Assembly: GCA_001824825.1 (NCBI GenBank)
Contig: MHTK01000002.1
Coordinates: 6,020 to 70,019 of the forward strand
Length of the DNA stretch: 64,000 bases
Direction: 5' to 3'
DNA from: Candidatus Vogelbacteria bacterium RIFOXYD1_FULL_46_19
Lineage (GTDB): Bacteria > Patescibacteriota > Minisyncoccia > Phycocordibacterales > XYD1-FULL-46-19
This document shows positions 5,473-60,105 of the stretch, in pieces. The notes below the pieces were generated by a model. It saw only the letters and a list, made by a program, of their open reading frames with translations. It did no database searches and was not told the origin of the DNA. The first letter of the stretch is position 1. Every line of letters starts with the position of its first letter. The translations under genes and the position numbers were made by a program.

Positions 5473-6477
5473 CTATATTCCCAAGGTCCGACCTAGGGAA
5501 GTAGCCACTTTGGCTTTAGCTTCGGCTAGGGGCATTAAAAGCAGTGCCCCGGCGGCGGCCCGATGCCCGCCGCCGCCGAAGGTGGCGGCAATTTTAGACA
5601 CATCAACCAGGTCGGGGTTCTTAGACCGGAGGGATAATCTAACTCGTCCCAGCTCCTTTTCCACCAAAGTGGCAACCACTACATAATCCCTAACCAAAAG
5701 TAAGTCCCCCGAAATCGACAAGCCTTCCGTATCGGCGTAATTAATCCCCGCTGACTCCAAATCAGAAAAACTTAAAGCTACCATCCCCGCTCGTCCCCCA
5801 GCCACTTCCTCAGCCGAATTAAGAGCTAAGCCCCAATACCGCAAAGCGCCCTTGGTCATACTCCGCTCCAGGTCTAAAACCACTCGGGTAGCTTGGGGAT
5901 TCACTTTTAAAAGTTCCGCCCCCACCTCGAGTGTACGCGGGGTCACTTCCGGATATTTAAAACCCCCGGTGTCACTATACAGGCCAGCGTATAAATTGGC
6001 CGCCATAGTAGCAGTCAAGGCCACATGCCAAGCGGTTAGTAATTCAAAAATTATCTCAGCGGTGGCTGGCCGCGACGAATCGATTAAGTTGATCTGACCA
6101 AAGCCGGGATTGGAGATGTGATGATCAATCACTACTGTCTTTAAGTGAGACGGAAACACTACCGCCCCCTTTTTAGAAATCATATTAACTGAAGCGGAAT
6201 CCAAAATTAAAAACAAATCAAACTGGCCCACCTCAATATCGGAGTAAGCGGTCGGGATAATAGTTTCAAAACCTGGCAAAGCGGCAAGTGACGGGGATAA
6301 ATCCGAATCACCACCAATGGCCACCACCTCCTTACCCAAACTACGACACGCTTCAGCGAGAGCCAGCACCGACCCGGCCGAATCAGGGTCCGGACTCGGG
6401 TGTAAATGCAGCAATATCCGGTTTGAATTTTTAATAGCGTTTAGAATCTCGTCGGCAATTTTGAAAAAATCATTCAT
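5473..6477 (-). CDS. nrnA: DHH-family phosphoesterase (NrnA-like oligoribonuclease / pAp phosphatase)
   Basis: 334 aa with a DHH motif (VVIDHHISN) and a C-terminal DHHA1 GGGH motif (FGGGGHRAAAG). Confidence 0.8.
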   Translation of the reverse strand: MNDFFKIADEILNAIKNSNRILLHLHPSPDPDSAGSVLALAEACRSLGKEVVAIGGDSDLSPSLAALPGFETIIPTAYSDIEVGQFDLFLILDSASVNMISKKGAVVFPSHLKTVVIDHHISNPGFGQINLIDSSRPATAEIIFELLTAWHVALTATMAANLYAGLYSDTGGFKYPEVTPRTLEVGAELLKVNPQATRVVLDLERSMTKGALRYWGLALNSAEEVAGGRAGMVALSFSDLESAGINYADTEGLSISGDLLLVRDYVVVATLVEKELGRVRLSLRSKNPDLVDVSKIAATFGGGGHRAAAGALLLMPLAEAKAKVATSLGRTLGI

Positions 6478-16404: not shown

Positions 16405-18069
16405 CTAAATTTTACCAACAATTGGTTTAACCGGTAATTTAACATAGAAAGTACTGCCATGGCCGGAACCCTCCGACTCCGCCCAAATCTTACCCTGGTG
16501 AGCCTCCACAATTTTTTTAGCGATAAATAGGCCGTGTCCAGTGCTGTGAACGTTAATCTTGGCTGATTCCCTGCCTTTGCCACCTTCAGTAAATAGCTTT
16601 TTCTGATCATCATTAGAAAGACCAACACCTGTATCTTCAATCGAAAAAAGATAATTATTTGTATCTTGAGTTAACTTAACTTTAATGCCCCCGGTTAATG
16701 TGTAATTTAAAGCATTGTCAATTAGATTTTTAAATACATGTTCCACCAGTTGACCCTGATCCCCGGTAATCAAACCTTCGCCACTCGGTAGCCCAACCTC
16801 AAAACTTAACCCTTTATGCTTGGCCTGTTTTTCGTAATCGAGGCTTAATTTTTTTATAGTTTCAGTTAAAGAAAAAACTTTAAAATTATACTCTACCTTA
16901 CCACTACTAAGATCGGCTGACTTTAATATATTTTCTACAGTTTGACGTCCTTTGGCGTTAGATTCAGACGCTTCCTTAATCAATGATTTTACTGATTCTG
17001 GAACCAATCCATAGTCACCGCTTAAAATTGACTCATACGCAAATTGATTCTTAGTTAAATAATTTTTTACCTCGTGGCTTAAAAAATGAAGAAAATCCTC
17101 CTGCCCTTCATTAGATAAAGCCAATTTGTCATTGGTCGCTTTTAATTGTAGAGAAATCATTTCCTCACGTTCCTTGGCTTTGATTTCTCTCTTAACCCCA
17201 CGAATAGTGATAGCACTTAATATAATATAAACGACTAAGGTCAAAACAATAACAAAATAAATATAGGTCAGATCTTGCACAAATAGAAGTGAAGCAATGA
17301 CCAAACCCTGAGTCACTAATAGGGCTTTGACCCCAATTAACTTAATGTTAAAAGTATGAAATTTAACAATTAAGTAAGACAAAATGGCAGTAAAGATGAG
17401 CATCCCAAACAAACCCAACTGTTCTAGGGCAAACAGACCCAAAACCGAAGCGACCTGCCACGTAAAAATTAACAAGGCCACGAAAAATATAAGCCCCAAG
17501 GAAAACAGAAGTTTTTGCAGTCGATCTTTAGGATTGGCCGCTCGCTTTACTTTAACCACCCCCACCACCACCAACCAGACAAAAATTAATCCGGAAACAA
17601 TGTTTTGATAAAGATCCATCGCTGGTGAGGTAACTAGTTCACAATTAGTTAAATCAAAATATAGAATATTCCACGGTGAAAAAATCAAAGCTCCGGTTAA
17701 GGCAAACAAAGCAAACCAGAACAACTTGTAAGTCATCTTTACCGGCTTATCATTAAGAAACACATATAGCAAATACAGTGAAACGAGGGGTATGGAAAAC
17801 TGAATAAGCTGAGACAGTGGCCAAATAATGGTAATTAGATTAACGTTAACATTTGTCCATAAGATAAGGTTAAAAAATACTAATAGACAAAATAAAATAT
17901 TTAAGATTAATAAAACTTTAACGGCTAAACTTTGACGATTCTTATAAAATAAATATATCCCTGATCCTAACGCGACAAAAAAAGCCGGTAAATGTGAGTA
18001 ATACAAAAGCGGCAAAGCATCAGTTGAAAATAAGAAGTAAATTGGCGGTGCAACGTCAGTACAAAACAT
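16405..18069 (-). CDS. Sensor histidine kinase with large multi-TM N-terminal sensor domain
   Basis: 554 aa. The N-terminal 300 aa is polytopic membrane. There is an H-box (SHEVKNYL) and an HATPase_c domain with N, G1 and G2 boxes (DNALNYT..., IEDTGVGL, GHGLFIAKKIV). No response regulator is adjacent. Confidence 0.85.
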   Translation of the reverse strand: MFCTDVAPPIYFLFSTDALPLLYYSHLPAFFVALGSGIYLFYKNRQSLAVKVLLILNILFCLLVFFNLILWTNVNVNLITIIWPLSQLIQFSIPLVSLYLLYVFLNDKPVKMTYKLFWFALFALTGALIFSPWNILYFDLTNCELVTSPAMDLYQNIVSGLIFVWLVVVGVVKVKRAANPKDRLQKLLFSLGLIFFVALLIFTWQVASVLGLFALEQLGLFGMLIFTAILSYLIVKFHTFNIKLIGVKALLVTQGLVIASLLFVQDLTYIYFVIVLTLVVYIILSAITIRGVKREIKAKEREEMISLQLKATNDKLALSNEGQEDFLHFLSHEVKNYLTKNQFAYESILSGDYGLVPESVKSLIKEASESNAKGRQTVENILKSADLSSGKVEYNFKVFSLTETIKKLSLDYEKQAKHKGLSFEVGLPSGEGLITGDQGQLVEHVFKNLIDNALNYTLTGGIKVKLTQDTNNYLFSIEDTGVGLSNDDQKKLFTEGGKGRESAKINVHSTGHGLFIAKKIVEAHQGKIWAESEGSGHGSTFYVKLPVKPIVGKI

Positions 18070-18072
18070 GGT

Positions 18073-18405
18073 TTATATGTTAAATTCTTCAGGGCCGGTA
18101 CAAGTCTCCCCTTCTTCGACCTCATCTTCGGTGCAATAAGTTATACGACAATTTCCCGTACGACAAAAATCATAACAATCGTCACGAGCAGAACATAGTC
18201 CATAATCTTCAGCAGACATCAGGGTATATTTATAAAAACTCTGACTATCATAAAAACAAGCTTCCACTGCTGGATCACAATTAATAGTTGTTTTTATTAA
18301 AAATTTTTGACTAACAACAACGTAAAAATATCCCCACCCGCTCACCAAGACCAAGACCGAGACTGAAGCTGCAAATATAATCTTGTTGAGGTCTTTAGGC
18401 TTCAT
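18073..18405 (-). CDS. Small membrane-anchored cysteine-rich protein (10 Cys in 75 aa ectodomain)
   Basis: 110 aa with one N-terminal TM helix and a Cys-rich acidic C-terminal part. Its stop lies 3 nt before the start of the histidine kinase gene. Confidence 0.5.
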   Translation of the reverse strand: MKPKDLNKIIFAASVSVLVLVSGWGYFYVVVSQKFLIKTTINCDPAVEACFYDSQSFYKYTLMSAEDYGLCSARDDCYDFCRTGNCRITYCTEDEVEEGETCTGPEEFNI

Positions 18406-18573
18406 AGACTAATCCAAGATTGAAATTAAAAGACGAGGCCCTTTTCTAATATGGTATTTAAAAAAAATATAACAACCGTCACAATTACTAAAATAACTAC
18501 GGAATTGAAATAACCTAGATCTAACTTCTGACAACAACTTTGAAGAAACTTTCATTAACTAAGTATATCAGCT

Positions 18574-19491
18574 TCAGGCTACGAACAGAAGATAAGTACC
18601 CACCCCAACCACCACCATAGCAAGCAACTTCTGAAAGATATATTTCAGCTCAATTTTTTCAGCTACTAAATTAGGAAAAACCAGAGTTAGTATGATTCCC
18701 AAGATGAGAACACTTAACGGTTGATAGGAGTTAACCAAGAGAACCAAGGCCACTGGTGCCAAAATAAAAGAATAGGCAAACAGAAAGTTGCCGACTAATA
18801 CTAATATTTCGTTTAAGATATTTATAGAAAATACTCCAGCTGAATTTCTTTTTACCATATAAACAAAGCCTTGCCGACACGATCTAAATCCAATAACTAG
18901 AAATAGTCCGACTAGAGCTAAACTAAAACTCTGCCAAAATAACGATATCCACAAGCTCTCTTCAACCGCCGCCAATTTAAATAAGACTGATTCAAAAGAT
19001 GAAAAAAAAGCAGCCAGAGTCATGAGGAACGCAGTTTTAGTTTTAAGATGAAACCGGTTGTCGCGGTCCACATCAATGGAAATAATTAAGGCCCCGATAA
19101 TAATTAAGGCCATAGCTGCTAACTGCATACTATTTAAAATTTCATTCAAGATGAAAAAACCCAGGATGTAACCGAAGACTGGTACTAGTTGATAAAAAAC
19201 TACCACCACCGAAGCTTCATCGTCCGCCAAAGCCACAAAGTAAAGATATAGGGCGGCTGTTTCCAATAAACCACTGGCTATAAGAATAGCCAAATTAAAA
19301 GGTGTGACATTAAAAACCAAGGGATTTAACCAATATAAAACGGGCATAGCCAAAAAACCAATCAGTGAAGAAAAAACCATCAAAGTTGAAATACCGGCAG
19401 TTTTGAAGTACTTCTCCAGTAACAACTTGTCTATATGGTTACCAATACTCCACAGTATCGGAGCGGCTATGGCGACAAAAAACCAACTCAT
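18574..19491 (-). CDS. EamA/DMT-superfamily transporter
   Basis: 305 aa with 10 TM helices and a two-EamA-repeat architecture. It starts 3 nt after the upstream ATP-grasp gene. Confidence 0.75.
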   Translation of the reverse strand: MSWFFVAIAAPILWSIGNHIDKLLLEKYFKTAGISTLMVFSSLIGFLAMPVLYWLNPLVFNVTPFNLAILIASGLLETAALYLYFVALADDEASVVVVFYQLVPVFGYILGFFILNEILNSMQLAAMALIIIGALIISIDVDRDNRFHLKTKTAFLMTLAAFFSSFESVLFKLAAVEESLWISLFWQSFSLALVGLFLVIGFRSCRQGFVYMVKRNSAGVFSINILNEILVLVGNFLFAYSFILAPVALVLLVNSYQPLSVLILGIILTLVFPNLVAEKIELKYIFQKLLAMVVVGVGTYLLFVA

Positions 19492-19494
19492 ATA

Positions 19495-20859
19495 TTATCG
19501 CTTAATCGGAATAATAGAATCTTGATCACTAAATACAAACTTGGAAATGTGCTTTAAATATCCCCATTTAACGAGCTTTAAATAATCATGTTTAACAAAT
19601 TTAGCACCTATATCATGACGATAAAACATTTGGGGAATTTTTATGTTTAACAACAATTTATAGGCCTTTTGTCGTGCCTGACTTATAGTGGAACCAAAAC
19701 CTGTTACATACATTGCATACCCACGCCGATCGGAAATGTAATATTGAGATTGTACCTCCTTAGCACCACGTAAAGCCACTTCTTCAAAATGGATATGCTT
19801 TAAATCGGTTTGAGTTACTTTTCGACTAAAGTGGATATCAGTATTATAAGAAGAATTTTTATCTAATTTATAGTTATATGGGAAAGGAGGTAGGGCTACG
19901 GTTACCACCACACCATAACCTTTCTTCCATTTGAGGTTAAATTTTTGTCCTGAAGCAACCGCGAAGAGCAGATCTCCCCAGGGAGAGCTATTTATTTCAG
20001 ATTGAAGGTGTACAATCGGCGAACCTAAACGAGCAGTAGCCTCTAGAGGAAACGCCCCTTTTTGATTAACAATGCAGTTAACAGAAATATCCCCACGGAA
20101 GTTAGCTTTGACTAGAAAGGGTTTTAACTTGGCTAAAGTTTCAGTGAATAACTTATTTTTTTCATCGTTATCATACCAAGCCAGAGTTCCCATCTCGCTT
20201 GTTACTGGACCAATATCGCCAGGAAAGAGCCTGGTGTGTTCAAAATTAACTTCAATCGGACCAACCCAATCATATCCGTTGAAAAATCTTCCCACTCCCA
20301 TTTCAATACCATCAACATATTCTTGAAGAGTAATCTCATTCATCTTAAGTAAACCATTACGGTTGTAAGACTCTAAAACGTTAACCACATCCTCACCGGT
20401 GTCCATATGCCCAGTGTAAGTCAGACTTTTAAAACTATGATTATTATGCTTCAACACCCAACGCTTTGGGTTTTTTCTTATAAAAGAAATAGCACTCTTG
20501 ATATCAAAAAAATTTTTTAACTCAGCGATTTGTAAACCACTTACTTTAAAAATTTGTTGACCAAATTCACGGTCAGTTTCAAGTTTTTCACCTAGTTCTG
20601 AACCACCAAAAACAGTATAACCCTCCTCTCTCAACTTATCCTGAATAGCCCCATAACCAACATCATCAAAAATAATAAGGCCATCCGTTCCCACCCATGA
20701 TAAATCCTGGCGCCAATTATTAGTTTTTGGTACTAAATTATTAAAATTCTCCCGAGCTGATTTTTCCTCAATAAATAAATGCACATCATGACCTTCACGG
20801 TGAAGCAATAATGAAAGGTGACCCGCGATTAAATCGTTGGAGACAAAGAGTATTTTCAT
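19495..20859 (-). CDS. PurD-like ATP-grasp ligase (divergent; not a canonical GAR synthetase)
   Basis: 454 aa with GAR-synthetase-like N/A/B-domain layout (WVGTDGLIIFDD..., RWVLKHNNH..., PGDIGPVTSEMG). It lacks the PurD GGREHA signature. Confidence 0.68.
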   Translation of the reverse strand: MKILFVSNDLIAGHLSLLLHREGHDVHLFIEEKSARENFNNLVPKTNNWRQDLSWVGTDGLIIFDDVGYGAIQDKLREEGYTVFGGSELGEKLETDREFGQQIFKVSGLQIAELKNFFDIKSAISFIRKNPKRWVLKHNNHSFKSLTYTGHMDTGEDVVNVLESYNRNGLLKMNEITLQEYVDGIEMGVGRFFNGYDWVGPIEVNFEHTRLFPGDIGPVTSEMGTLAWYDNDEKNKLFTETLAKLKPFLVKANFRGDISVNCIVNQKGAFPLEATARLGSPIVHLQSEINSSPWGDLLFAVASGQKFNLKWKKGYGVVVTVALPPFPYNYKLDKNSSYNTDIHFSRKVTQTDLKHIHFEEVALRGAKEVQSQYYISDRRGYAMYVTGFGSTISQARQKAYKLLLNIKIPQMFYRHDIGAKFVKHDYLKLVKWGYLKHISKFVFSDQDSIIPIKR

Positions 20860-20916
20860 GCTAAATATTATACATATTTTAGAATCTTTGTCAATACTAC
20901 AGATTTAGCTGACTAA

Positions 20917-21372
20917 TTACTTACGCCGTAACACCAGCATCCAGTGTTTGGAATTTTTCCGACCATTGTGCCAGCGTCGCATAAACTCGTTTTGCTTCAA
21001 TTTAAAACGCTCCCCCAGCCACGGATCGTTTAGAATTACTTCCGTTTCAGACAGTCCCACCACGACAGCGTAATGACCCTGATTGGTAGCTGGTTCGATA
21101 TAATTTACCATTACCGGCGAGCCTTTTTTTAAATAATATCCAATAAGGGCCAGACTACCACGACCAGCAAAAGTACAAGCAAAACCTAGTTGGCGTGACA
21201 CCCCCTCCAGGCGACGGTGACTAACACCATGACGAGGGTCGGTTTTAAGCTTGCGTTCTAACCAGGCTTCGCTTTTATGGCAGCCCCAGTGACCAAGCAC
21301 CGATTGCAGGGCCGCCGCTGCACAAGTATAGACTTTATCTTGTTTATAGTAAGGAGTCTGGAGAACGGTCAT
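20917..21372 (-). CDS. Peptidase C39-like (papain-fold; BtrH-like) domain protein
   Basis: 151 aa with a Cys nucleophile context (YTCAAAALQSVLGHWG) and a downstream His (GHYAVVVG), typical of the C39-like family. Confidence 0.58.
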   Translation of the reverse strand: MTVLQTPYYKQDKVYTCAAAALQSVLGHWGCHKSEAWLERKLKTDPRHGVSHRRLEGVSRQLGFACTFAGRGSLALIGYYLKKGSPVMVNYIEPATNQGHYAVVVGLSETEVILNDPWLGERFKLKQNEFMRRWHNGRKNSKHWMLVLRRK

Positions 21373-21866
21373 TTATTTAGAGTAAAGAGTTATTAAAATT
21401 GAGGGCTCGTTCAGGCAAAGCAAAGCCCGTCTAAGGACGAGCTTTTGGAGTGCAAAGTGTAAATGTCATATTTCTTTTCCTTCCGACACCAAGCGCAAAC
21501 TCGAAGCTGATCCAAATTGGCCACAAATGCGGTCTTCCTCATCAATCACCGCTTGAGTTGACTGACTCCACCGGAACAGCCGCAGCACCCCGGTGGGCAG
21601 ATAACACATTTGCACCACCCTCGATCCCGCAATAAGACTGGTCGAAATAATTTCCCACCAGCGGCCACCACAACAAGAACACCTAAACTGCTGACCTGGG
21701 ACCAAATTGTTGAAATCAGATTCCGTGCGAATCACTTTACACCTCCTTTCTAAGATCAACCGACCTGTCTACATTAGAGCAAATTATTTTCTTTAAAGGA
21801 AGAGCAAGTAGTGGTTAGCACATTCAAACCATCAAAAAAGCCAAGCGGATAATAACCACTTGGCCA

Positions 21867-22457
21867 CTAAACAGGTTGCCAGACAAAGTAGCTCGTCTTG
21901 TCTGGGTCCGTTTCGACATAACCCTCCGGTTGGTACAAATGGACCGGCAGAACAGTTTCAAACAGGTGCGCCCGGTGCTTGGTCCCCAGCCCTGGATAAG
22001 AAATGGAGGCTTGAACCGGAAAGATTTTCGTACCTAGAAAATTTAAAGAAATATTATCTTCAATTCCCAGTTCCTCCCGTAGGCCACGGCTGGCTGCCTC
22101 GGTTGGTGTTTCGCCTGGTAACATTTTTTCCGACATACTGTAATCCAGACTACGCCGGTTCTCTCGACCGTCTCGAAACACTTGGCGGTCTTCCCTCAGG
22201 CGCAAGCGATCCGTCGGCAAGTCAAAGTAAACATTAATCCTAACTGCCTCAACACAGCGGACGAGCGGCCAAGTGGTCGAACCCTCGCCCCAGCTACACT
22301 CACCTAAGACCAGCTCGCGGTGTAAATGCTTGATGGTTTTGGCTCGGCCCTGCTCCCCCCAGCTACCAAAGGGGATATTATGGCGAGTAAGTAACTCTAA
22401 AAGAGCTTCAATATCCACTACCAATCCTCCTCGATCGGTTAAGTTCGAATTGTACAT
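21867..22457 (-). CDS. NUDIX-like hydrolase (degenerate Nudix box)
   Basis: 196 aa. The segment PGETPTEAASRGLREELGIED resembles the Nudix box. GC is clearly higher than in flanking genes. Confidence 0.4.
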   Translation of the reverse strand: MYNSNLTDRGGLVVDIEALLELLTRHNIPFGSWGEQGRAKTIKHLHRELVLGECSWGEGSTTWPLVRCVEAVRINVYFDLPTDRLRLREDRQVFRDGRENRRSLDYSMSEKMLPGETPTEAASRGLREELGIEDNISLNFLGTKIFPVQASISYPGLGTKHRAHLFETVLPVHLYQPEGYVETDPDKTSYFVWQPV

Positions 22458-22567
22458 CTACCCTATACTGCCCCAAAACGGCTGGGTTGGCAATTTAAAT
22501 AAAGGCTATTATACCCAGCACTTTAAAAAGAACCCGGAAAAAGCTTTTGCTCTTCCGGGTTCGTGCA

Positions 22568-24244
22568 CTACAGTGACTTCAAGAGCTGTGATGCCCGCTC
22601 CTCCGCCTGTGCCACATATGTCTTGTAATCAGGAATCCTAGTGAGAACCCCTTCAGATAAGGTATAAGTAGAATCAAGTCGTGCTTTTTCAAGGAAGTAT
22701 CGATCGTGGGACACGAGCAATATGGTTCCTCGATAGGCTTCGATTGTTTCCTCTAGAGCTTCGAGTGCCTCGAGATCGAGATGATTGGTAGGCTCATCTA
22801 GGACCAGCACATTGACTGATTGGGCGGAAAACAAAGCAAGAAGCAATCGAGCGCGGCCGCCGGGACTCAGAGTACCGATTGGCTGCTTAACTTGACTCTC
22901 CTCGAAACCAAACCTTGCAAGCTTGGCATATGAATCTTGTTCTCTGAACCCTGCGCGCTCCTTGAGGAATTCGAGAAGCGTGCGATCACGAGGCAAGCTT
23001 TCGTGCTCCTGCATCATGTTTCCGATTTTGACACCAGAACCGATCTCGATCGTGCCACCACGTGCCACCAGTTGACCAGTAATGGTCTTGAGAAGAGTTG
23101 ACTTTCCTGTGCCGTTTAAGCCCATGATGCCAACCCTGCTCCCATACCGCGCCTCAAATGACATTGGACCGATAGTGAAACCCTCCGGATATCCTGCTAC
23201 AACGTCAACGAGACGTATATCAAGCGTCCCGGGACCGACTTCGGCCTTGAGCGGAATCTCAAACGGATCGCGTTCGATAGGTTTTTCAACTTTCTCCATC
23301 TGGTCGATCCGTTTTTCAATTACTTTCGCTTTCCTTCCAGATCCTCCTGCGCGATCTCGCTTGAAACCTCGCAAGAACTTGTCATTGTCGCTTCCCTGCC
23401 AGTTCGATCCTTTGGCCGAAGCAGCTCTCTGCTGTCGTGCTTGATCAGAAAGTCGTTCAATCTCCTCCCGTTGGAGTCGATATTCTTCCTTCTGCCGAGC
23501 AATGCGTTTCGCCACCATCGCCAGGTAATCACTATATGTACCACCTGAGATGTTGAGTACGCGCGTATGTCGGTCAAGTTCCAAGATTTTCCTCACGACT
23601 CGATCAAGAAACCGGCGATCGTGAGAAATGACAATGCAAGCAGCATCAGACTTCCGGAGGAAATCCTCAAGCCAGATAAGTGCTGGTAGGTCAAGATTAT
23701 TTGTCGGCTCATCAAGGAGTAAGAGATCGACACCTTTGAGGAGAATCCCCGCTAGTGCCACCTTGCTTTTCTGTCCGCTACTTAAATCGGACAGACGATG
23801 ATCAATGCCGACGTTTTCAAGACCGAAACCTGCAAGCATCACTTTGATGTGATGCTCAAAGGCGTAACCATCGAGACGCTCGTATTGATGGTGCGCCTCC
23901 CCATACTCATCGGACTTCGCCTTGTCCTCAAGCTGAGAAGCAAGGGTCTCGAGTTTTTGTTCAAGAGCATCGACGCCTGTGATCCGCCTCAAGTACTCAC
24001 TAATCGTTTCATCGCCCGAGAGACTGGTGTCCTGCGGTAGATATCCGATGCACGTATTCTTAGCAAGTTCAATCTCGCCAGCATCAGGCTCCACCAATCC
24101 TGCAACGATCTTGAGAATGGTTGTCTTACCAGTCCCGTTGTCGCCGACTAATGCCACCTTCTGCCCTTTTGCCAAGGAGAAGGAGACATCGGCAAGCACA
24201 GTCAGACTGCCGTAATTTTTTTGAATGTGTTTTGCTTGTATCAT
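22568..24244 (-). CDS. ABC-F family ATPase (two tandem ABC domains, no TMD)
   Basis: 558 aa with two Walker A motifs (GDNGTGKTT, GLNGTGKST), two ABC signatures (LSGGQKSKV, LSPGGRARL) and an approximately 80 aa charged interdomain linker. GC is about 52% against about 40% background. Confidence 0.9.
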   Translation of the reverse strand: MIQAKHIQKNYGSLTVLADVSFSLAKGQKVALVGDNGTGKTTILKIVAGLVEPDAGEIELAKNTCIGYLPQDTSLSGDETISEYLRRITGVDALEQKLETLASQLEDKAKSDEYGEAHHQYERLDGYAFEHHIKVMLAGFGLENVGIDHRLSDLSSGQKSKVALAGILLKGVDLLLLDEPTNNLDLPALIWLEDFLRKSDAACIVISHDRRFLDRVVRKILELDRHTRVLNISGGTYSDYLAMVAKRIARQKEEYRLQREEIERLSDQARQQRAASAKGSNWQGSDNDKFLRGFKRDRAGGSGRKAKVIEKRIDQMEKVEKPIERDPFEIPLKAEVGPGTLDIRLVDVVAGYPEGFTIGPMSFEARYGSRVGIMGLNGTGKSTLLKTITGQLVARGGTIEIGSGVKIGNMMQEHESLPRDRTLLEFLKERAGFREQDSYAKLARFGFEESQVKQPIGTLSPGGRARLLLALFSAQSVNVLVLDEPTNHLDLEALEALEETIEAYRGTILLVSHDRYFLEKARLDSTYTLSEGVLTRIPDYKTYVAQAEERASQLLKSL

Positions 24245-24295
24245 AATTGTCTCCTTTCTTGTTATTTTACCACCGTTAAAGAACTTTTGCCGGAC

Positions 24296-24385
24296 TTAAA
24301 GAACCTTTTCGATTCCTGACCGGAAACAAATCAGTTTGTTTCTTATCGGGAATCTTTCCCTACGGGAACGGTATAGGTTTTCCAT
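24296..24385 (-). CDS. Candidate 29-aa leader uORF upstream of ABC-F (MENLYRSRRERFPIRNKLICFRSGIEKVL)
   Basis: The ATG is preceded by AGGTGA at -6. It lies in the 240-nt leader between tRNA-His and the ABC-F start and contains a perfect 8-bp hairpin (GAAACAAA-ctga-TTTGTTTC). This is a speculative call. Confidence 0.25.
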   Translation of the reverse strand: MENLYRSRRERFPIRNKLICFRSGIEKVL

Positions 24386-24486
24386 TTTTTCACCTAACGG
24401 CTCAAAAATATGGAAGAACCTTTTCGATTCCCGATGGGCACTGATTTACCCAAAAAGAAAAACCCCTAGATAGAGGTTTTTCTTTT

Positions 24487-24562
24487 TGGGGTGCCCATCG
24501 GGAATCGAACCCGAATTAGAGGTTCCACAAACCTCTGTGTTAACCGTTACACCATGGGCACC
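24487..24562 (-). tRNA. tRNA-His (GTG), with G-1 and encoded CCA
   Basis: Hand-folded cloverleaf: acceptor GTGCCCA/TGGGCAC, anticodon stem GAGGT/ACCTC, loop TTGTGGA, T-loop TTCGATT, extra 5' G and discriminator C. Confidence 0.85.
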
Positions 24563-24630
24563 ATGTTTAATAAATGGTATGGAGTATTGAATCAATATCC
24601 TATACTAAATACCCCCATACACCCCACCCC

Positions 24631-25188
24631 CTACTCATACTTCGGCGGCTCCTCTTTTATACCAGACAAGTGGTTGGTAAGTCTAGCCAAAGCGTACAAT
24701 AGGCTCGATAGTCGGTTTAAGTAAGCGCGGGTATTGTCATCGATTGATCTAACTCCTTCCTCTTGCACCGCCACTACTCGTCGTTCAGCCCGGCGAGCCA
24801 AGGTCCGCGCGTAATCGAAATGGGCCGCCAGTTCTGTCCCCCCGGAAATGAAAAAGGTGTTAATAGGTGGCATTAGTTTTTCAATTTCATTAATTAAGGT
24901 TTCAGTGGCCACCACTTTGTCCCGACTTATTTTTTTATCCGCTCCGGCTAGCTCGGCTTGTACAATAAACAAATTTTGCTGGGTCTGGTGGACGAGTTCA
25001 TGGACCGGAACATTGTCCGGCGGTACAGCGAAGCCCGCTCGAGCTTTTTCCTTACAAATTCCTAAAAATGAGTTAATCTCATCCAAAGTACCGAGAGCCT
25101 CCGCGATACCGGAACTTTTTGATACCCGCTGGTCACAACCAAAAGTCTTGGTTGTACCCCCATCGCCTTTACCAGTGAACAATGCCAT
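24631..25188 (-). CDS. ATP:cob(I)alamin adenosyltransferase, PduO/MMAB type
   Basis: 185 aa with an N-terminal TGKGDGGTT motif and the Cob_adeno_trans fold signature (VSKSSGIAEALGTLDEINS). Confidence 0.8.
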   Translation of the reverse strand: MALFTGKGDGGTTKTFGCDQRVSKSSGIAEALGTLDEINSFLGICKEKARAGFAVPPDNVPVHELVHQTQQNLFIVQAELAGADKKISRDKVVATETLINEIEKLMPPINTFFISGGTELAAHFDYARTLARRAERRVVAVQEEGVRSIDDNTRAYLNRLSSLLYALARLTNHLSGIKEEPPKYE

Positions 25189-25279
25189 AAAATCTAGTTT
25201 AGCAAAAAATGGGTAAAAAGAAACCGCTTCCGAGAATGATTATTTCAAACTCGAAAGCGGTAATCTATTAGCACCGCCA

Positions 25280-25552
25280 CTAGACCCCCGGGAGCAGTAG
25301 CTGAAACCCCAGGAAAGACTCCAATTGGGGCCAGCTATGTTTCCGAATGGTGGGACGACGAGACCCAACTTTCGTGCCAGCCCCCTCGATCACCTGACCG
25401 AAGAGAAGGGGTCGGCGGTCGGCTGGAATTTTCCCGCCCCGACGGTAAACGACATTGTTCACCGCCTGTCGCTCGCTTGAAGCCCAGGTATTACCCTGGA
25501 ATTTTACGAGTTGGCCGTCTTTTTCATAGACGGCGTAAAGTTCCCTTTTCAC
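25280..25552 (-). CDS. Hypothetical small protein
   Basis: 90 aa ORF with no motif. Its coding status is uncertain. Confidence 0.3.
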   Translation of the reverse strand: MKRELYAVYEKDGQLVKFQGNTWASSERQAVNNVVYRRGGKIPADRRPLLFGQVIEGAGTKVGSRRPTIRKHSWPQLESFLGFQLLLPGV

Positions 25553-25794
25553 AAAACCTCCTTGGCCACGGAAAGCCGTTTAGAAATCCAACGAATCTTC
25601 TCTTATTATACCATAGTTAATATATAAAGCAAGGAGCTCGGGAGAGGACTTTCCCCCAACGGGGGCTGGTACTTTTCGTTTCATTCGCTTAACAGCTCAT
25701 TCTTATCGAAAAGTCTTTCAAGTCCCCACGCGACTAAAGCAGTTTAGTCGCTTCCCGAGCACAAATAAAAGCACCCGGTAGGTGCTTTTATTTG

Positions 25795-25876
25795 TGCTCG
25801 GGAGAGGACTTGAACCTCCACGCCTTTCGGCACTGGTACCTCATACCAGCGTGTATACCAATTTCACCACCCGAGC
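25795..25876 (-). tRNA. tRNA-Leu (GAG), long variable arm, CCA not encoded
   Basis: Acceptor GCTCGGG/CCCGAGC, anticodon stem CTGGT/ACCAG with loop ATGAGGT, variable arm GCC-GAAA-GGC and T-loop TTCAAGT. Confidence 0.8.
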
Positions 25877-25947
25877 ATTTACACGACTTATTGTAAGGAA
25901 ATCAGAGCAAAAAACAAGCCGGCGGAGCCGGCTTGTTTTTTGTTTGA

Positions 25948-26451
25948 TTATTTGGTTTCAGTTTCGTCCGTAGATTCAAGAGCCTCAGAAGAACTTGCTT
26001 CAGTTTGATCGGCAGTTACTACTTCCACTTCCGGCTCAATCGCCTCTTCTTCCATTGCCACCTCATCATCAGTGTCTCCCACGCTGGCCTTGGTACCCAC
26101 TACCTGCTTCATGCGACGGCGGATTTCCTTAGCCGCCTTGTCCCTAATATAGTAAAGCTTAGACCGGCGAACTTTAGACTGCTTCACCACCTCAATCTTA
26201 TCGATCATCGGCGAATACAGCGGAAAAATTTTTTCCATTCCTACCCCACTGGCCACTTTACGAACCGTAAAAGTCGAACCAGCTTCGTGGCCATGCTTAA
26301 CGGCAATTACCAACCCTTCAAAAATCTGAATACGAGTTTTGCCTTTTTCTTGAATCTTTTGGTGGACCCGCACCGTACTACCAGGAACCACTTTAACCTT
26401 GGCTCTTTTGTCAGTATCAATAGGTGAAATTTTAAATATAGGTGCTTGCAT
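25948..26451 (-). CDS. rplS: 50S ribosomal protein L19 with acidic C-terminal extension
   Basis: L19 core ([37 protein letters not shown]) followed by an approximately 45 aa Glu/Asp-rich tail. Confidence 0.9.
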
Positions 26452-26463
26452 AACAGCGAAAGT

Positions 26464-27201
26464 TTAGCACGAGCCCCGAAGATTATCAAGGGCGACTGTC
26501 ATATCCTGGGGTAAGTCCGCCTCCAGGGTCACCTTTTGGCCCCCTAAGAGCGCAATCTGAAGCTTAGCCGCGTGCAGAGCTTGTCGCTTTAACCCCAAGG
26601 CTTCGGTAGGCTTGTTCTGGGCGTATAAGTGGTCACCTACAATCGGGTGCTGTAGGGCCTTAAAATGGGCCCGAAGCTGGTGAGTGCGGCCAGTCTCGGG
26701 CTTGGCCTCCACCAAAGAGTAGCCGGAAAAAGTTTCTAGAACTTTAAAAATGGTGCGGGCCGAACGTAAATGGCTAGCGGCCTTAGGGCTTGCCACTCGC
26801 AGGCGCGGGTCGCGTTTACTCCGACCAATTGGCAGATCGATTACTTTTTCTTCTTCCGGGTTGGCAAAAACCCCGTGGACAATAGCCAGATAGGTTTTTT
26901 TCACCAACCGATTCTTAAACTGCTGTTTTAAGTATTGGAAACTGGGCTCATTTTTGGCAATCACCATTACCCCGCTGGTATCGCGGTCCAGGCGGTGAAC
27001 AATCCCCGGTCGGGGAATCTCCCGGCCGTCTGGCATTTTCGCCGGTTCACCCACCTCCAGCGTATCCGGAAACCGGCCAATAACCCAGTCAGCTAAGGTT
27101 AACTCCGGCCGGCGGCCATCAGAGTGCACCGCGAGACCAGCCGGCTTGTCGATAGCCACCGTATTATCGTCCTCAAAGATTATGGTCGGTTCCAGATTCA
27201 T
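26464..27201 (-). CDS. RluA-family pseudouridine synthase
   Basis: Catalytic HRLDRDTSG motif. The start was chosen at MNLEPTIIFEDD; the ORF track extends 12 codons further upstream. Confidence 0.85.
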   Translation of the reverse strand: MNLEPTIIFEDDNTVAIDKPAGLAVHSDGRRPELTLADWVIGRFPDTLEVGEPAKMPDGREIPRPGIVHRLDRDTSGVMVIAKNEPSFQYLKQQFKNRLVKKTYLAIVHGVFANPEEEKVIDLPIGRSKRDPRLRVASPKAASHLRSARTIFKVLETFSGYSLVEAKPETGRTHQLRAHFKALQHPIVGDHLYAQNKPTEALGLKRQALHAAKLQIALLGGQKVTLEADLPQDMTVALDNLRGSC

Positions 27202-27248
27202 TCTTGATAAAGTAATACAAATACGGTATTGTAGCAATGTTACAAGCT

Positions 27249-27322
27249 GCGCGCTTAGCTCAGTTGGCTAGAGCATCTCGTTTACACCGAGAGGGTCGGG
27301 GGTTCGAGTCCCTCAGCGCGCA
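27249..27322 (+). tRNA. tRNA-Val (TAC), CCA not encoded
   Basis: Acceptor GCGCGCT/AGCGCGC, D-arm GCTC-AGTTGGCTA-GAGC, anticodon stem TCTCG/CGAGA with loop TTTACAC, and T-loop TTCGAGT. Confidence 0.85.
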
Positions 27323-27326
27323 CAAG

Positions 27327-27352
27327 AAAAGGCTGCTTCGGCAGCTTTTTAT
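27327..27352 (+). terminator. Rho-independent terminator after tRNA-Val
   Basis: GGCTGC-ttcg-GCAGC hairpin followed by TTTTTATT. Confidence 0.7.
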
Positions 27353-27475
27353 TGTGCGCACTAGGAAGTGCACTGCTGCACTTCCGTGAGGGACTCGAAA
27401 GGAGTTTCGTTATCAAGCACCTGCCAAAGGTGCCTTGATCGAAACTCACCAGCCCCCGTAGGGGGAGAGTCCCTC
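27353..27475. repeat. tRNA-Val 3'-flanking module: hairpin-interrupted inverted copy of the tRNA 3' end, hairpins, degenerate direct copy of the T-arm
   Basis: GTGCGCAC (27354-61) plus a 26-nt hairpin insert plus GAGGGACTCGAA (27388-99) is the reverse complement of the tRNA-Val 3' 22 nt, split at the acceptor/T-stem junction. GAGTCCCTC recurs at 27466-74. Confidence 0.6.
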
Positions 27476-27655
27476 GATTCCCAAAATCAAAAGCCCAAAG
27501 CTTTCGCTTCAGGACTTTTGATTTTACAGCAACGCTGAGAGACTCGAACCAAGTTTCCACGAAGCCTGATTTTTTACTCGAGTTATTTTGCTTGTCGCCT
27601 TCGCGATCCTTCTGGTGGACTGCATCACGCCGTAGGTTCGCAGTAGCGAACCTAC

Positions 27656-27825
27656 GGCGGAGGGGGCTAGATTCTAAACTTACAGTTTCAGTCCCCTTGT
27701 TGGATAAATTTTTCGTCCTTCGGACTTAAATTTATGCTCAACAAAGCTTCGAATCCCTCCTTCCGCTTTGCGAAACCGTCCTTCAGACGGCTTCCGCAAA
27801 AAAGCTTTCGGGTCTCGCTTTTTTG
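27656..27825. repeat. tRNA-Ser 3'-flanking module: degenerate direct copy of the tRNA 3' end plus trailer hairpin
   Basis: GGCGGAGGGGGCTAGATTCTAAACT (27656-80) matches TGCGGAGGGGGCGAGATTCGAACTCG of the gene (27824-49). There is a hairpin CGCAAAAAAGC...GCTTTTTTGCG at 27796-27830 and a perfect 12-bp hairpin at 27612-27643. Confidence 0.6.
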
Positions 27826-27912
27826 CGGAGGGGGCGAGATTCGAACTCGCGATGCCCTTGCGGACATGCTGGTTTTCAAGACCAGTGCTTTAAACCACTC
27901 AGCCACCCCTCC
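27826..27912 (-). tRNA. tRNA-Ser (TGA), long variable arm, CCA not encoded
   Basis: Acceptor GGAGGGG/CCCCTCC, anticodon stem CTGGT/ACCAG with loop CTTGAAA, an 18-nt variable arm and T-arm GCGAG-TTCGAAT-CTCGC. Confidence 0.8.
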
Positions 27913-27960
27913 AAACAACCAGCGATATTAACGCCGATTGAATTTAACTTATGCTTAAAC

Positions 27961-28284
27961 CTAAACCGAACTAGTAGTGTTGTGCTCGGCACTCACTGTC
28001 TCACTCGAAGAAACTTGAGCTGGCGTTGGTACTGACTGCTGCGTAGTCACTGGCCTGGCTGATGTTTTCCAACCACTAAAAAATTTGGCCACAAACACCA
28101 GGTAAATTATTTCTAAGATACCAGCGGTTTGTAAAATCAGCATGGCAATATACCAGCCCTTATCCCCGCGGCGCGCGGCTTGCCACAAAGCCAAACCCTT
28201 CCACACTGTGGACCACACAATTAAAACCAGTATCACCCCCCAAAAAAGCGAAGCAAAAACTAAAATGTCGTTGGGATTTTCCAT
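27961..28284 (-). CDS. Small membrane protein (two TM helices) with Ser/Thr-rich tail, hypothetical
   Basis: 107 aa hydrophobic ORF with coding-like composition. Confidence 0.45.
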   Translation of the reverse strand: MENPNDILVFASLFWGVILVLIVWSTVWKGLALWQAARRGDKGWYIAMLILQTAGILEIIYLVFVAKFFSGWKTSARPVTTQQSVPTPAQVSSSETVSAEHNTTSSV

Positions 28285-29509: not shown

Positions 29510-29553
29510 AAAATAAAATTTCACAGGATTATATTCCTGTGAAATTTTATTTT
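29510..29553 (+). terminator. Perfect 19-bp hairpin terminator after tRNA-Arg(TCT)
   Basis: AAAATAAAATTTCACAGGA-ttatat-TCCTGTGAAATTTTATTTT. Confidence 0.6.
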
Positions 29554-30100
29554 GTGCCCCTGAGCAAGCAAACTGCTTGGCTTGCGTGAGGGAATCGAAA
29601 GACTTTTCGTTACCAAGCACCTGATAAAGGTGACTTGGTCGAAAAGTACCTGCCCGCCATCGCTATGCTCAGGCATTGGCAGGCGGGCCAGCGAGTGTAG
29701 CTCGAGATTCCCTCTAGAACTTGGCGTCCGGGAATCGAAGAAGCTGAGCTTGTCGCAACGAGGCTGTAGGCCGAAGTGAGACGCGAAGCCTGTACTGTTC
29801 CTGCTGTGCCCGCTAGAGCTTTAGCGTAAGCGGGTAATGAAAGATTCCCGATGTGTGTAAAGGAACCGAAAGACTTTTCGCTGCCGAAACTTATCGCAGT
29901 GAGCGTAGCGAAACGAGATGTGAAGCCTGTACCGTTTAGGTTTTACTCTCCTTGGCTCGGAAATGAGAAATATTACTTTCTCATTTCACTCGCTCTACAT
30001 CAGCAATAAAAACGAAAGCCGCTTAGGGGTTAACCAAAGCGGCTGAATCACATTTGATGATATATAAACCAAGGTCGGACCTTGGGAAAGAAATTGGGGG
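29554..30100. repeat. Expanded tRNA-Arg(TCT) 3'-flanking repeat field (split inverted 3'-end copy, multiple T-arm fragments, repeated ~100-nt units, many hairpins), non-coding
   Basis: GTGCCCCTG (29554-62) plus a 25-nt hairpin plus GAGGGAATCGAA (29588-99) is the exact reverse complement of the tRNA 3' 21 nt, split at the acceptor/T junction. ATTCCCTC, GGGAATCGAA and GATTCCCGA fragments follow. There are two GAAGCCTGTAC(T/C)GTT-containing repeat units at 29780-29940. 710 bp contain no ORF longer than 65 aa. Confidence 0.55.
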
Positions 30101-33898: not shown

Positions 33899-34072
33899 CA
33901 CGAATGAAATGGGTGGATCTGACCAGGATTCGAACTCGAAAGGGGTCGGGAAAACTGTAGTTTTCCCGTGGAGGAAGGCAGAGCGAAGCTCGTCGGAAAA
34001 CCGTCCGCGTGTCGCTGAAGCTTTAGCGGAGGCACAGGGTTTCCGAAAGGTGAGATTCCTGATGAGAGCACC
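33899..34072. repeat. tRNA-Arg(GCG) 3'-flanking module
   Basis: Inverted T-arm copy CCAGGATTCGAA (33923-34) is followed by CTCGAAAGG and then the hairpin GGGAAAACTGTAGTTTTCCC. A degenerate direct copy GAGATTCCTGATGAGAGCACC lies at 34052-72. Confidence 0.55.
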
Positions 34073-34197
34073 ACTCTATTCGTACAGTACCTAGACTAAA
34101 ATTTGGCGACGGCCAAATTTTGAGTCGAAAGAAAATCCTGGCAAGCCCCCCCTACCAGTAGCTAATTACCAACCTAGTAGGTAGCAAACAAAAAACC

Positions 34198-40884: not shown

Positions 40885-41106
40885 TGCCCCGTGCAAGATT
40901 CTGTCCCTACCTGCCCGCCAGCGCCTAAGCCAGCAGGGCGACTCGCCTGCCATGCAAGGTACGAACGGGTACCCCGCCCTGTGCACAGGGCGGGGTCTTT
41001 CGAATCCTGACGCAAGCCAAGTCCTAAAGCCGTCCGGACTCGGAGTAGGCCAGTTGACTTGCTCACGGGGCACAAAATAAAAACGCCTAGCGGCGTCTTC
41101 ATTTTG
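40885..41106. repeat. tRNA-Lys 3'-flanking module
   Basis: Direct copy TGCCCCGTGCAAGATTC (40885-901) matches 16 of 17 positions of the gene's TGCCCCGTGCAGGATTC (41107-23). There is an inverted T-arm fragment TTTCGAATCCTG (40999-41010), a hairpin CCGCCCTGTG-ca-CAGGGCGG, and a 15-bp perfect inverted repeat CACGGGGCACAAAAT (41064-78) / ATTTTGTGCCCCGTG (41101-15) that includes the tRNA acceptor end. Confidence 0.6.
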
Positions 41107-57840: not shown

Positions 57841-58060
57841 ATTTTAAAAAAGTAGAGCTATTAAGGTTGTGGATAGGTGGATAAGTTACTTTAAGGTTGA
57901 TAATTAAGGAAAATTTTATAACTTAAATTGTTTAATTTGGGGATAAAGCATTGGATGAGTTGGGATTAACTTTTTCATTTTTTATTATTAGACATTAATC
58001 CCAACTTTAATCTTCTTTTACTTCTGACTTATACCCAAGTTAATCCACATAATTTATTGT
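57841..58060. promoter_or_regulatory. Candidate oriC in the dnaA-dnaN intergenic region
   Basis: AT-rich 220 bp with clustered DnaA-box-like 9-mers (TGTGGATAG, GGTGGATAA, TGGGGATAA, TAATCCACA) and a T/A-rich putative unwinding stretch (TTTTTCATTTTTTATTATTAGACATTAAT). Confidence 0.5.
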
Positions 58061-59422: not shown

Positions 59423-59608
59423 AAGATAAGAATGAAAAAGGGTTAAGAAAAGTGGAGATAATTTTTCTAATTATAGGAGGATAAGCTATTATAACAAACC
59501 CTGTCTAATTGTTGATAACCGGTGGATTAGTTGAGGATAGTCATTATTTCATATTTGAGGCCTCGGGGACAGTTGCCAAGGCTATTTTTTTAATGTAGAC
59601 TAGCCTTC

Positions 59609-59743: not shown

Positions 59744-59745
59744 AT

Positions 59746-60087: not shown

Positions 60088-60105
60088 TTAAATACTCCTT
60101 AAACA

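Follow-up and report, generated by a model that had tools for sequence, protein, structure and literature searches.

Probable lateral acquisition of a Paceibacteria ABC-F ATPase gene as a promoter-gene-terminator cassette beside tRNA-His in a Candidatus Vogelbacteria genome

The closest described systems for the gene considered here are the translation factor EttA (E. coli YjjK; NF008775 / TIGR03719) and the antibiotic-resistance (ARE) factors VmlR and VmlR2 (ARE2-type; PDB 6ha8, 8buu), all of them members of the ABC-F family. In addition, a broad paraphyletic group of YdiF-type or unclassified ABC-Fs, falling outside EttA, Uup, YbiT, YheS, and ARE1-7, has been described by Murina et al. (2019; PMC6723617), who report that the interdomain linker of ARE1-5 is extended by ~30 amino acids (aa) and that linker length is neither necessary nor sufficient for a resistance factor; the term 'Parcubacteria' is absent from the main text of that paper. 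A literature search for ABC-Fs of Candidate Phyla Radiation (CPR) bacteria found nothing relevant. Here we analyse an ABC-F gene (22568-24244, minus strand) located next to tRNA-His in a 64,000-nucleotide (nt) stretch of Candidatus Vogelbacteria bacterium RIFOXYD1_FULL_46_19 (contig MHTK01000002.1, positions 6,020 to 70,019), referred to as the window, to which all coordinates refer unless a related locus (L number) is named. By comparing protein architecture, gene order, and sequence divergence across related loci, we argue that the gene encodes what appears to be an ordinary ABC-F of its group and that it was probably acquired from a Zambryskibacteria-like lineage.

The initial annotation, made from the sequence alone, had recognised a two-ABC-domain ABC-F with a long charged linker, and this description holds in both Pfam and linker-length comparisons. 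The 558-aa protein contains two ABC_tran domains (PF00005, E = 6.6e-47) and an ABC_tran_Xtn domain (PF12848, 26.8 bits against a cut-off of 25.9). The ATP sites are intact in both domains with respect to Walker A, signature, Walker B-Glu, and H-loop: nucleotide-binding domain 1 (NBD1) carries Walker A at G34-T41 (GDNGTGKT), the signature at 154 (LSSGQ), LLLLDEP at 174-180, and SHD at 207, and NBD2 carries the corresponding motifs at 375-382 (GLNGTGKS), 459 (LSPGG), 479-485 (VLVLDEP), and 512 (SHD). The AlphaFold model (pLDDT 86.3) predicts an all-soluble fold with no transmembrane domain, in which NBD1 contains an Arm helical hairpin (~91-123), the linker forms a helical hairpin (helices 237-280 and 286-319, tip 281-285), and the C-terminus ends in a short helix (540-557). 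When this model was used as a Foldseek query, the top 25 matches were all ABC-Fs, including PoxtA, VmlR2, EttA, YbiT, YheS, and Uup, and all subfamilies scored alike, giving no placement by fold.

The initial annotation had also proposed that the protein be compared with resistance families and with the EttA, Uup, and YbiT clades; scored against the named models, it fits none of them, and the resistance reading is not established by this comparison. NF000355, 'ribosomal protection-like ABC-F', is passed (423 bits, cut-off 380; protein 2-520 against profile 3-491 of 499), although this is a broad parent model for which a pass is not proof of resistance. Scores stay far below the cut-offs of the EttA (313 and 304 bits; cut-offs 599 and 806.75), Uup (282 and 252; 900 and 936), YheS (272; 917), and YbiT (279; 762) models. 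The specific resistance models as a whole return 163-310 bits against cut-offs of 680-1450 (bits/cut-off: Msr 266/680, Vga 253/725, Lsa 224/750, Sal 250/725, OptrA 243/1450, CplR 272/780, and the producer type TlrC/CarA/OleB 310/800).

Compared to EttA, the window protein has the same two ABC domains, soluble architecture, NBD1 Arm, and helical interdomain hairpin (P-site tRNA interaction motif, PtIM), and ribosome-bound EttA structures are close matches (Foldseek E 1e-36 to 1e-33), but its linker is ~29 aa longer, its sequence identity is ~28-29%, and its score is 313 bits where 599 is required. No solved structure matches the sequence better than VmlR2 (8buu, 249 bits), with an alignment that continues unbroken through the linker and with NF000355 passed; in contrast to VmlR2, the window protein retains the Arm (the VmlR2 alignment skips residues 83-126), has neither the longer C-terminus (558 versus 622 aa) nor the antibiotic-responsive leader, and represents a type that is a core, syntenic gene in its own clade. 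It is roughly equidistant from all characterised subfamilies, and in this it resembles the YdiF-type and unclassified ABC-Fs, a likeness drawn from their published description rather than from YdiF sequences.

The reading taken from the initial annotation is that of an ARE-type resistance ABC-F on an integrase-inserted island at the 3' end of tRNA-His. In favour of this reading, the NF000355 score and the VmlR2 match point toward ribosomal protection, and the linker is ~29 aa longer than that of M. tuberculosis EttA, ~27 aa longer than that of YheS (both alignments break within it), and ~9 aa shorter than that of VmlR2, an extension of 27-29 aa that equals the ARE1-5 extension in size. Against it, every specific resistance-family model lies far below its cut-off, linker length alone does not define resistance factors (Murina et al.), and in the donor clade described below the gene belongs to the core set, keeps its synteny, and does not vary in length. 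Of 41 family members, with identities down to 57%, 40 have a linker segment of exactly 115 aa, and the tip is one of the better-conserved regions of the protein (0.82); such constancy of length and tip is more in keeping with a ribosomal contact under conservation than with adaptation to particular drugs. Judged from its sequence, the protein is most simply regarded as the ordinary ABC-F that is typical of its family in the Paceibacteria, a CPR group; it is a soluble twin-ATPase for which a resistance role is not established. By analogy with solved ABC-F/ribosome complexes, and borrowing the E-site / P-tRNA model of EttA, the ATP-bound closed protein would bind the ribosomal E site, its Arm would contact the L1 stalk, and its linker hairpin would extend along the P-site tRNA toward the peptidyl-transferase centre, where it may reposition the tRNA CCA end and relieve a stalled or drug-blocked centre; ATP hydrolysis would then free it from the ribosome.

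Homologues of 95-57% identity, nearly all 557-560 aa in length, were found in Zambryskibacteria, Campbellbacteria, Vogelbacteria, Taylorbacteria, and Paceibacterota metagenome-assembled genomes (MAGs). In ~25 loci the gene is part of a conserved cluster consisting of a 61-64-aa open reading frame (ORF), a radical-SAM gene (~443 aa), PNP_UDP_1 (284 aa; in overlapping reading frames), and the ABC-F, usually followed by a uridine-kinase-like gene; an example is L011 (5426-10363 of that locus), and the cluster ranges across L005-L057 with ABC-F identities from 95% to ~57%. One Vogelbacteria locus also has the radical-SAM / PNP / ABC-F order, with an ABC-F that is 60% identical. Among donors, the identities of the neighbouring genes follow that of the ABC-F (88%, 89%, and 87.5% for L011 versus L013), and the cluster is therefore vertically inherited in the donor group, in which the ABC-F is a core, syntenic gene. 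CPR-type ABC-F contigs are also present in MAGs labelled Aquabacterium, Sphingomonadaceae, Gammaproteobacteria (876-kb contig), Fibrobacter or Myxococcales (L018, L022, L033, L039, L050, L058); given their CPR-type neighbours, these odd labels look like binning or labelling errors and not like cross-phylum transfers.

The window copy does not lie in this cluster but between tRNA-His and NusG-L11, and its sequence is nested within a clade formed by L017 (Zambryskibacteria), L018, L019, L020, L011, L021, and L013. Identity is highest to L146, where the gene sits beside PNP_UDP_1 (95% aa; synonymous divergence, dS, 0.35), followed by L017-L021 (88-93.5% aa; dS 0.42-0.63 for these and L011), and drops to 59-60% aa with saturated dS against Vogelbacteria loci. 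Housekeeping genes of the window give a different picture. The RuvB of the window has a single 99% cluster, namely itself, and a best non-self match of 78-82% among 5.8 billion proteins, the named matches being Vogelbacteria (78% and 75%); thus 16 ABC-F clusters reach at least 84% identity and no non-self RuvB exceeds 82%. The Vogelbacteria MAG with the 78% RuvB has an ABC-F that is just 59% identical. Two loci that share the PilB / RuvB / RuvC / TyrRS / PBP1A order of the window (L063 and L065) have PilB, RuvB, and TyrRS at 63-81% aa, with dS of 3.0-5.1 or not computable. The nearest locus by its PduO-type cobalamin adenosyltransferase (CobAT), L067 (with L066), is 87% identical in that protein, and L067 is 79% identical in L19 and 65% in RluA. 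A tblastn search of all window ORFs against the donor loci matched the ABC-F only, plus weak matches for EamA, a histidine kinase, and a Na/Ca exchanger in L013.

Vertical inheritance with local rearrangement, by which a native ABC-F would have been shuffled away from radical-SAM / PNP and would owe its similarity to slow evolution, has several observations on its side. The family is a conserved core gene across Paceibacteria; gene order in CPR genomes is fluid, and L007 and L025 likewise lack the radical-SAM / PNP context; identity is higher for the L007 ABC-F (71%) than for Mur, RuvA, S20, and RuvX (44-57%), and the S20 / RuvA / Mur block that the window also has is found ~6-10 kb away from it in L007; and L013 has ABC-F, EamA, and histidine kinase in the order of the window. 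We nevertheless consider this explanation unlikely, as dS is unsaturated (0.35-0.63) toward seven or more other species-level genomes, compared to saturated values for RuvB, PilB, and TyrRS against the closest syntenic relatives, and the protein collection holds no counterpart in RuvB to the 16 close ABC-F clusters. In the Vogelbacteria comparison, furthermore, the ABC-F (59%) diverges faster than RuvB (78%), and slow evolution is therefore no explanation for identities of 93-95%. The sharp ends of nucleotide homology at promoter and terminator, described next, also argue against it.

Alignments (blastn) run from 24291 to 22522 against L146 (91.7%) and L147 (87.2%), with similar spans against L005-L016; in the flank alignments, homology begins at GGCAAAAGTTC and stops after the terminator T-run. 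This cassette (22522-24291, minus strand), from promoter to end of the T-run, is the sole stretch with nucleotide homology to other genomes (81-92% identity). Within it, a candidate extended -10 promoter box, TGGTAAAAT (24264-24272, minus strand), has most of its bases invariant in nine aligned sequences (the window and eight relatives) and lies ~20 nt before the start codon, followed by a ribosome-binding site, AAGGAG (24251-24256, minus strand), in a 5' untranslated region of ~20-25 nt. A simple sigma-70 two-hexamer scan found nothing, which is consistent with a -35-independent extended -10 promoter; the box would thus function as a promoter from which the gene may be expressed constitutively. 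At the other end, an intrinsic terminator (22530-22562, minus strand; 13-bp stem plus T-run), detected by terminator scan, is shared with the donor genomes in the alignment. Drug-responsive leaders or attenuators are common, although not universal, in resistance ABC-F genes (vmlR, msr, vga, lsa). Upstream of the window gene there is no leader ORF or attenuator and no Rfam leader match, a further point against a resistance island.

The upstream junction of the cassette falls within a truncated tandem copy of a tRNA-trailer element (24299-24321), where the motif AAAAG(G)TTCTTTAA is shared with L146, and where the ...GAAAAGGTTCTTTAAG of the element and the GCAAAAGTTCTTTAAC of the donor have a short motif in common. 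Given this position at a short shared sequence within the trailer repeat, illegitimate or microhomology-guided recombination is the probable route, by which the cassette would have entered at the truncated repeat. The dS of 0.35 to the nearest known allele suggests that this happened some time ago. The donors retain the ancestral context, with the ABC-F in the radical-SAM / PNP_UDP_1 / ABC-F / uridine kinase cluster as in most relatives, and the window allele is nested among them, from which we infer that transfer ran from donor to window. The horizontal acquisition proposed by the initial annotation is thus supported by identity and dS values discordant with those of housekeeping genes, by homology limited to 22522-24291, and by the lost gene cluster; cassette boundaries, loss of synteny, and sequence discordance are direct observations. 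Taken together, we consider it likely that the ABC-F was acquired from a Zambryskibacteria-like donor lineage as a 1.77-kb promoter-gene-terminator cassette, probably by illegitimate or microhomology-guided recombination and with no integrase.

A short cassette with unrelated sequence on both sides could also arise if an assembler spliced in DNA from a co-occurring Zambryskibacteria-like organism, and sample and record names indicate that the donors and the window organism apparently come from similar groundwater-type metagenomes. Such an artefact is extremely improbable: the same 13-22 kb is present in four public assemblies, from different assemblers and samples, at 99.99-100% identity and with the same junctions each time, including a 277.8-kb contig and a Logan contig that spans both junctions. 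Two chimeric joins would be needed in sequences that share no long repeat, and none of the known donor alleles is identical to that of the window (best 95% aa, 91.7% nt).

Several points weigh against acquisition by transfer or against parts of the account given here. The junction microhomology of 9-12 nt is short and could be a chance match. There is partial synteny with the donor-clade locus L013, which has the succession ABC-F, EamA, histidine kinase in common with the window, the latter two at only 36% and 27% identity (87% for the ABC-F and 51% for the Na/Ca exchanger). The match lists of RuvB and ABC-F shared no contig, and the two genes were compared across different genome pairs; the discordance therefore rests on the dS contrasts and on a protein collection in which non-self RuvB identity stays at or below 82%. 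Slow evolution of the ABC-F could inflate amino-acid similarity, without explaining unsaturated dS. L021, a donor locus with a tRNA-His, has no CobAT upstream and hence provided no calibration. With 64 kb of the genome in view, the cassette may be either an addition beside a native ABC-F or a replacement of it. Finally, the suggested ribosomal mechanism is drawn wholly by analogy.

The position of the cassette invites comparison with tRNA islands inserted by tyrosine integrases. On the minus strand, in transcription order, tRNA-His(GTG) is followed by a 242-nt spacer, the ABC-F, a Nudix-like ORF, a 97-aa ORF, and a stand-alone C39 peptidase (20917-21372, minus strand; 151 aa), and the ORFs and tRNA of the initial annotation were all recovered at the positions it gave (ORF list, ARAGORN, Pfam). 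To the right of tRNA-His lie CobAT, a 90-aa gene, tRNA-Leu, ribosomal protein L19, and RluA; tRNA-His itself (24487-24561, minus strand; ARAGORN; Rfam tRNA, 63.1 bits; G-1 encoded at 24562, CCA encoded) is the final gene of this conserved RluA / L19 / tRNA-Leu / 90-aa gene / CobAT / tRNA-His block. A metagenome scan with CobAT retrieved 80 loci, the best being L066 and L067 (87% identical). In all 16 related loci scanned, tRNA-His directly follows CobAT, and the DNA beyond it differs from lineage to lineage; in the 33 related loci that extend 3 kb or more past CobAT / tRNA-His, no homologue of the ABC-F, of the Nudix-196 type or of C39 follows. The distance from CobAT / tRNA-His to NusG (2332-2877) / L11 (1840-2262) is 21.75 kb in the window versus 3.1-7.0 kb in 13 relatives. 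The interval (2877-24631) carries a G6PD and a DHH phosphoesterase (both identified by eye), a RimK-like ATP-grasp protein, a DUF2238 protein, a 1444-aa protein without Pfam match, a 715-aa PKD-domain protein, a Na/Ca exchanger, a histidine kinase, EamA, a PurD-like ATP-grasp protein, the C39 peptidase, the Nudix-like gene, and the ABC-F. Hence tRNA-His is the border of a hypervariable interval, unusually large and mosaic in the window, and the initial annotation was right to let its block end there.

As in tyrosine-integrase islands, variable DNA starts exactly after the tRNA gene and is absent from the same site in relatives; unlike them, the window interval has no integrase that we could find, no bounding direct repeats, and no GC signal, it is mosaic in composition, and its copies of tRNA ends have counterparts genome-wide. 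Among the Pfam-scanned ORFs from tRNA-His to NusG, none matched an integrase or recombinase family; ORFs 3285-4712 and 5473-6477 of this interval were identified by eye only. That the ABC-F borders a tRNA gene with variable content downstream does favour a resistance island, whereas the lack of integrase or recombinase in the ORFs scanned, of bounding direct repeats, and of a compositional signal, together with tRNA-end copies that belong to an element found after seven of seven tRNA genes, speaks against it. In combination with the protein and leader evidence above, an integrase-inserted island bearing a resistance ABC-F is distinctly improbable at this site.

Base composition had been the basis for describing the block as a GC-rich islet. 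The estimate made for the block itself was close (21400-24250 has a GC content of 0.494, i.e. about 0.49-0.50), but the conserved right flank (24600-28000) has 0.495, and it is the block on the left alone that differs, so the islet as such does not exist. Among 57 ORFs, the ABC-F gene has z = +0.90 for GC and z = +0.58 for GC at third codon positions (GC3), and the Nudix gene z = +1.0 for GC; of all segments of equal size, 6.4% match or exceed the GC of 21400-24250. The visible step at ~20.9-21.0 kb is the edge of a low-GC block (16405-20859; gene GC 0.36-0.38, z -1.3 to -1.6; GC3 0.30-0.39; z -1.3 to -2.0 over GC and GC3 together) that contains the histidine kinase, a 110-aa ORF, EamA, and the PurD-like ATP-grasp gene, and this block is a real compositional outlier beside the reported islet. 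In five of six related loci (L005, L007, L011, L013, and L015, not L009) the ABC-F gene (GC 0.47-0.51) is likewise GC-richer than its own locus, so that its GC characterises the gene family and does not point to a foreign source. Composition, whether taken as GC, as GC3 or in sliding windows, was consequently dropped as evidence of foreign origin, the islet being equal to the conserved right flank and its composition therefore uninformative. The initial annotation had named three findings that would speak against its view: clustering of the ABC-F with housekeeping EttA/Uup of the same lineage, a syntenic locus, and a GC difference that is not significant. These hold in part: the ABC-F groups with the ordinary ABC-Fs of related lineages and the GC difference is not significant, but the locus is not syntenic in relatives.

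Elsewhere in the window, the strongest GC outlier is ORF 46948-47583 (minus strand; GC 0.649, z = +3.6), encoding a 211-aa protein whose signal peptide is lipoprotein-like (…VSGGCAS) and whose tail is rich in Arg, Glu, and Pro. The replication-origin region (56734-62040) is markedly AT-rich (z down to -2.6) and contains dnaN (GC 0.305), dnaA (0.353), a 113-aa ORF, a YidC-like gene, and a 405-aa ORF (0.315). Base composition is therefore strongly heterogeneous in this genome, housekeeping genes included.

The spacer between tRNA-His and the ABC-F contains partial repeats of the tRNA 3' end, which the initial annotation had taken to be att-like. The copies exist, but they had been misread: the long copy is inverted, the one direct copy is just 10 nt, and the layout is not specific to this locus, the same arrangement following seven of seven tRNA genes in the window; these are not att sites. 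Directly 3' of tRNA-His lies a bidirectional, palindromic, terminator-like hairpin (24449-24490; 20-nt arms, 95% complementary; A-run on one side and T-run on the other), which separates the tRNA gene from a perfect 19-nt inverted copy of its 3' end (24423-24441, minus strand; T-loop through acceptor 3' strand, 100% complementary), the 5' arm of the trailer element. The structured core (24343-24437, minus strand; covariance model R1, 81.5 bits, E = 4e-18) has an outer helix (P2) of T-arm sequence and its complement, enclosing GAAAAG and ACC junction motifs and a small hairpin (hp3). The 3' arm of P2 is the 10-nt direct tRNA-end copy (24345-24354), located 133 nt after the tRNA and upstream of the ABC-F. 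Beyond the core are a second partial inverted tRNA-end copy (24308-24319) and the start of a second tandem trailer copy (CAGGAATCGAAAAGGTTCTT...; 24299-24321, minus strand; direct repeat, 21 nt, 95%), which ends where donor cassette homology begins. The missing 3' half of this truncated copy was sought on the far side of the cassette and not found, and no direct repeats of the tRNA 3' end (attL/attR) bound the inserted DNA, with no further copy on its far side.

After all seven window tRNA genes the layout comprises: (i) a terminator hairpin, (ii) an inverted copy of the last 9-19 nt of the gene's own tRNA, (iii) often a hairpin AGC..AAACTGCTT..GCGT, (iv) the conserved core, with motifs GAAAG and ACC and a small hairpin, and (v) a direct tRNA-end copy 130-220 nt downstream. 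The elements occupy 24299-24445(-), 25641-25762(-), 27324-27478(+), 27663-27824(-), 29510-29939(+), 33900-34075(+), and 40890-41105(-). The inverted arm is the reverse complement of the tRNA 3' strand, including the discriminator, and not a copy of the 5' strand. Elements of this kind are also present in L066, L067, L069, L075, L083, L087, L088, L092, L095, L099, L105, and L143; that of tRNA-His is homologous to elements after tRNA-His in its nearest relatives (L066, L067, L069), and in L067 and L069 the inverted arm changes in step with the acceptor stem of the resident tRNA-His.

A strict, hand-written structural pattern found two copies and one false match, and a covariance model built from 8 copies was used instead. 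With this model, 6 copies were detected in the window at E <= 1e-5 and 22 in 1.0 Mb of related loci, 18 of the latter beginning 39-108 nt past a tRNA gene on the same strand. Pairing was observed in 88% of cells versus 68% in shuffles, and the covariation score was 0.54 versus 0.20 in shuffles and <= 0.17 in slid controls, although the alignment was fitted to the covariance model and these counts therefore lean somewhat toward it. The inner hairpin, which holds no tRNA-derived sequence, shows compensatory changes in five of five pairs. An Rfam search of the tRNA-His to ABC-F spacer and the other trailers returned only tRNAs and chance hairpin matches (miRNA models), and a literature search on tRNA-trailer inverted repeats found nothing relevant. 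At tRNA-Arg(TCT), three tandem copies occur (29585-29717, 29725-29854, and 29856-29939, plus strand), the second of which combines tRNA-His-type arms (CCGGGAATC ... GATTCCCGATG) with a core that resembles the tRNA-His element of L067; this suggests that trailer copies are moved or duplicated from one tRNA locus to another. We tentatively suggest, with low confidence, that the att-like repeats belong to an undescribed family of structured elements situated 39-108 nt after tRNA genes of some Paceibacteria, that the ABC-F cassette was captured inside one of them, and that trailers may serve as entry points for cassettes in integrase-poor genomes. The elements could be functional trailer RNAs mimicking a tRNA minihelix, or DNA hairpins serving as recombination landing pads.

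Downstream of the ABC-F, the Nudix-like gene (21867-22457, minus strand) is matched weakly by the Pfam NUDIX model (23.3 bits, cut-off 21.1). Its likely start is the GTG at 22418, 7 nt after GGAGGA (22425-22430), giving a 183-aa protein, and a 183-aa gene was called on one assembly (L004). It has a promoter-like sequence of its own, TGGGTATAAT (22508-22517), and a terminator (21839-21865), and its sequence suggests a separate transcription unit of different origin from the ABC-F donor. The initial annotation had placed these genes in one islet; donor homology is confined to the 1.77-kb ABC-F cassette, which includes neither the Nudix gene nor the small ORF.

The Nudix box reads ...EKMLPGE-x7-RGLREELGI. 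Compared to the canonical G-x5-E-x7-R-E-U-x-E-E-x-G-U of Nudix hydrolases (PF00293; MutT-like), most of the box is kept (E-x7-R-x-L-x-E-E-L-G-I), and substitutions affect the first Gly and the Glu of 'RE' in the window protein and 25 relatives. The family differs from Nudix hydrolases in having Gly or Ala in place of the 'RE' Glu throughout, and in an extra conserved N-terminal domain of ~50 aa; 25 of its 26 members match PF00293 weakly. The protein had been called a degenerate NUDIX, and the box is indeed altered, but family-wide, which makes this a family trait rather than decay. No NCBIfam match was obtained, and relatives with solved structures were limited to a 28-residue stretch. A word-indexed homologue search returned almost nothing, and an exhaustive HMMER search later showed a large family of 1417 cluster representatives at E <= 1e-3, each of ~180-200 aa; the best non-self relative is just 51% identical.

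The 97-aa Cys/Trp-rich ORF (21466-21759, minus strand; from TTG) was rightly considered questionable. An alternative start at 21735 gives 89 aa, with AAGGAG at 21743-21748, and this 89-aa version was called as a gene on a single assembly out of four; the ORF has a weak codon-usage signal (0.084 versus 0.12-0.22 for real genes), and tblastn found no homologue in any fetched locus. It lies directly upstream of a set of genes (18574-21372, minus strand) encoding the C39 (double-glycine type) peptidase of 151 aa, the PurD-like ATP-grasp ligase (454 aa; score far below the purD cut-off), and the EamA transporter, which could constitute a peptide modification and export set.

If the account of the ABC-F cassette given here is true, a core translation factor would be exchangeable between CPR lineages as a promoter-gene-terminator unit, without recognisable mobile-element machinery, and an order-level CPR group would carry a standard ABC-F with a linker of resistance-factor length. 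A long linker alone would then be unfit for calling resistance genes in metagenomes, where NF000355 would flag the window ABC-F. For resistance surveillance the significance is modest, with no evidence of a transferable resistance determinant. The protein would offer a compact, conserved ABC-F for study on the reduced ribosome of CPR bacteria.

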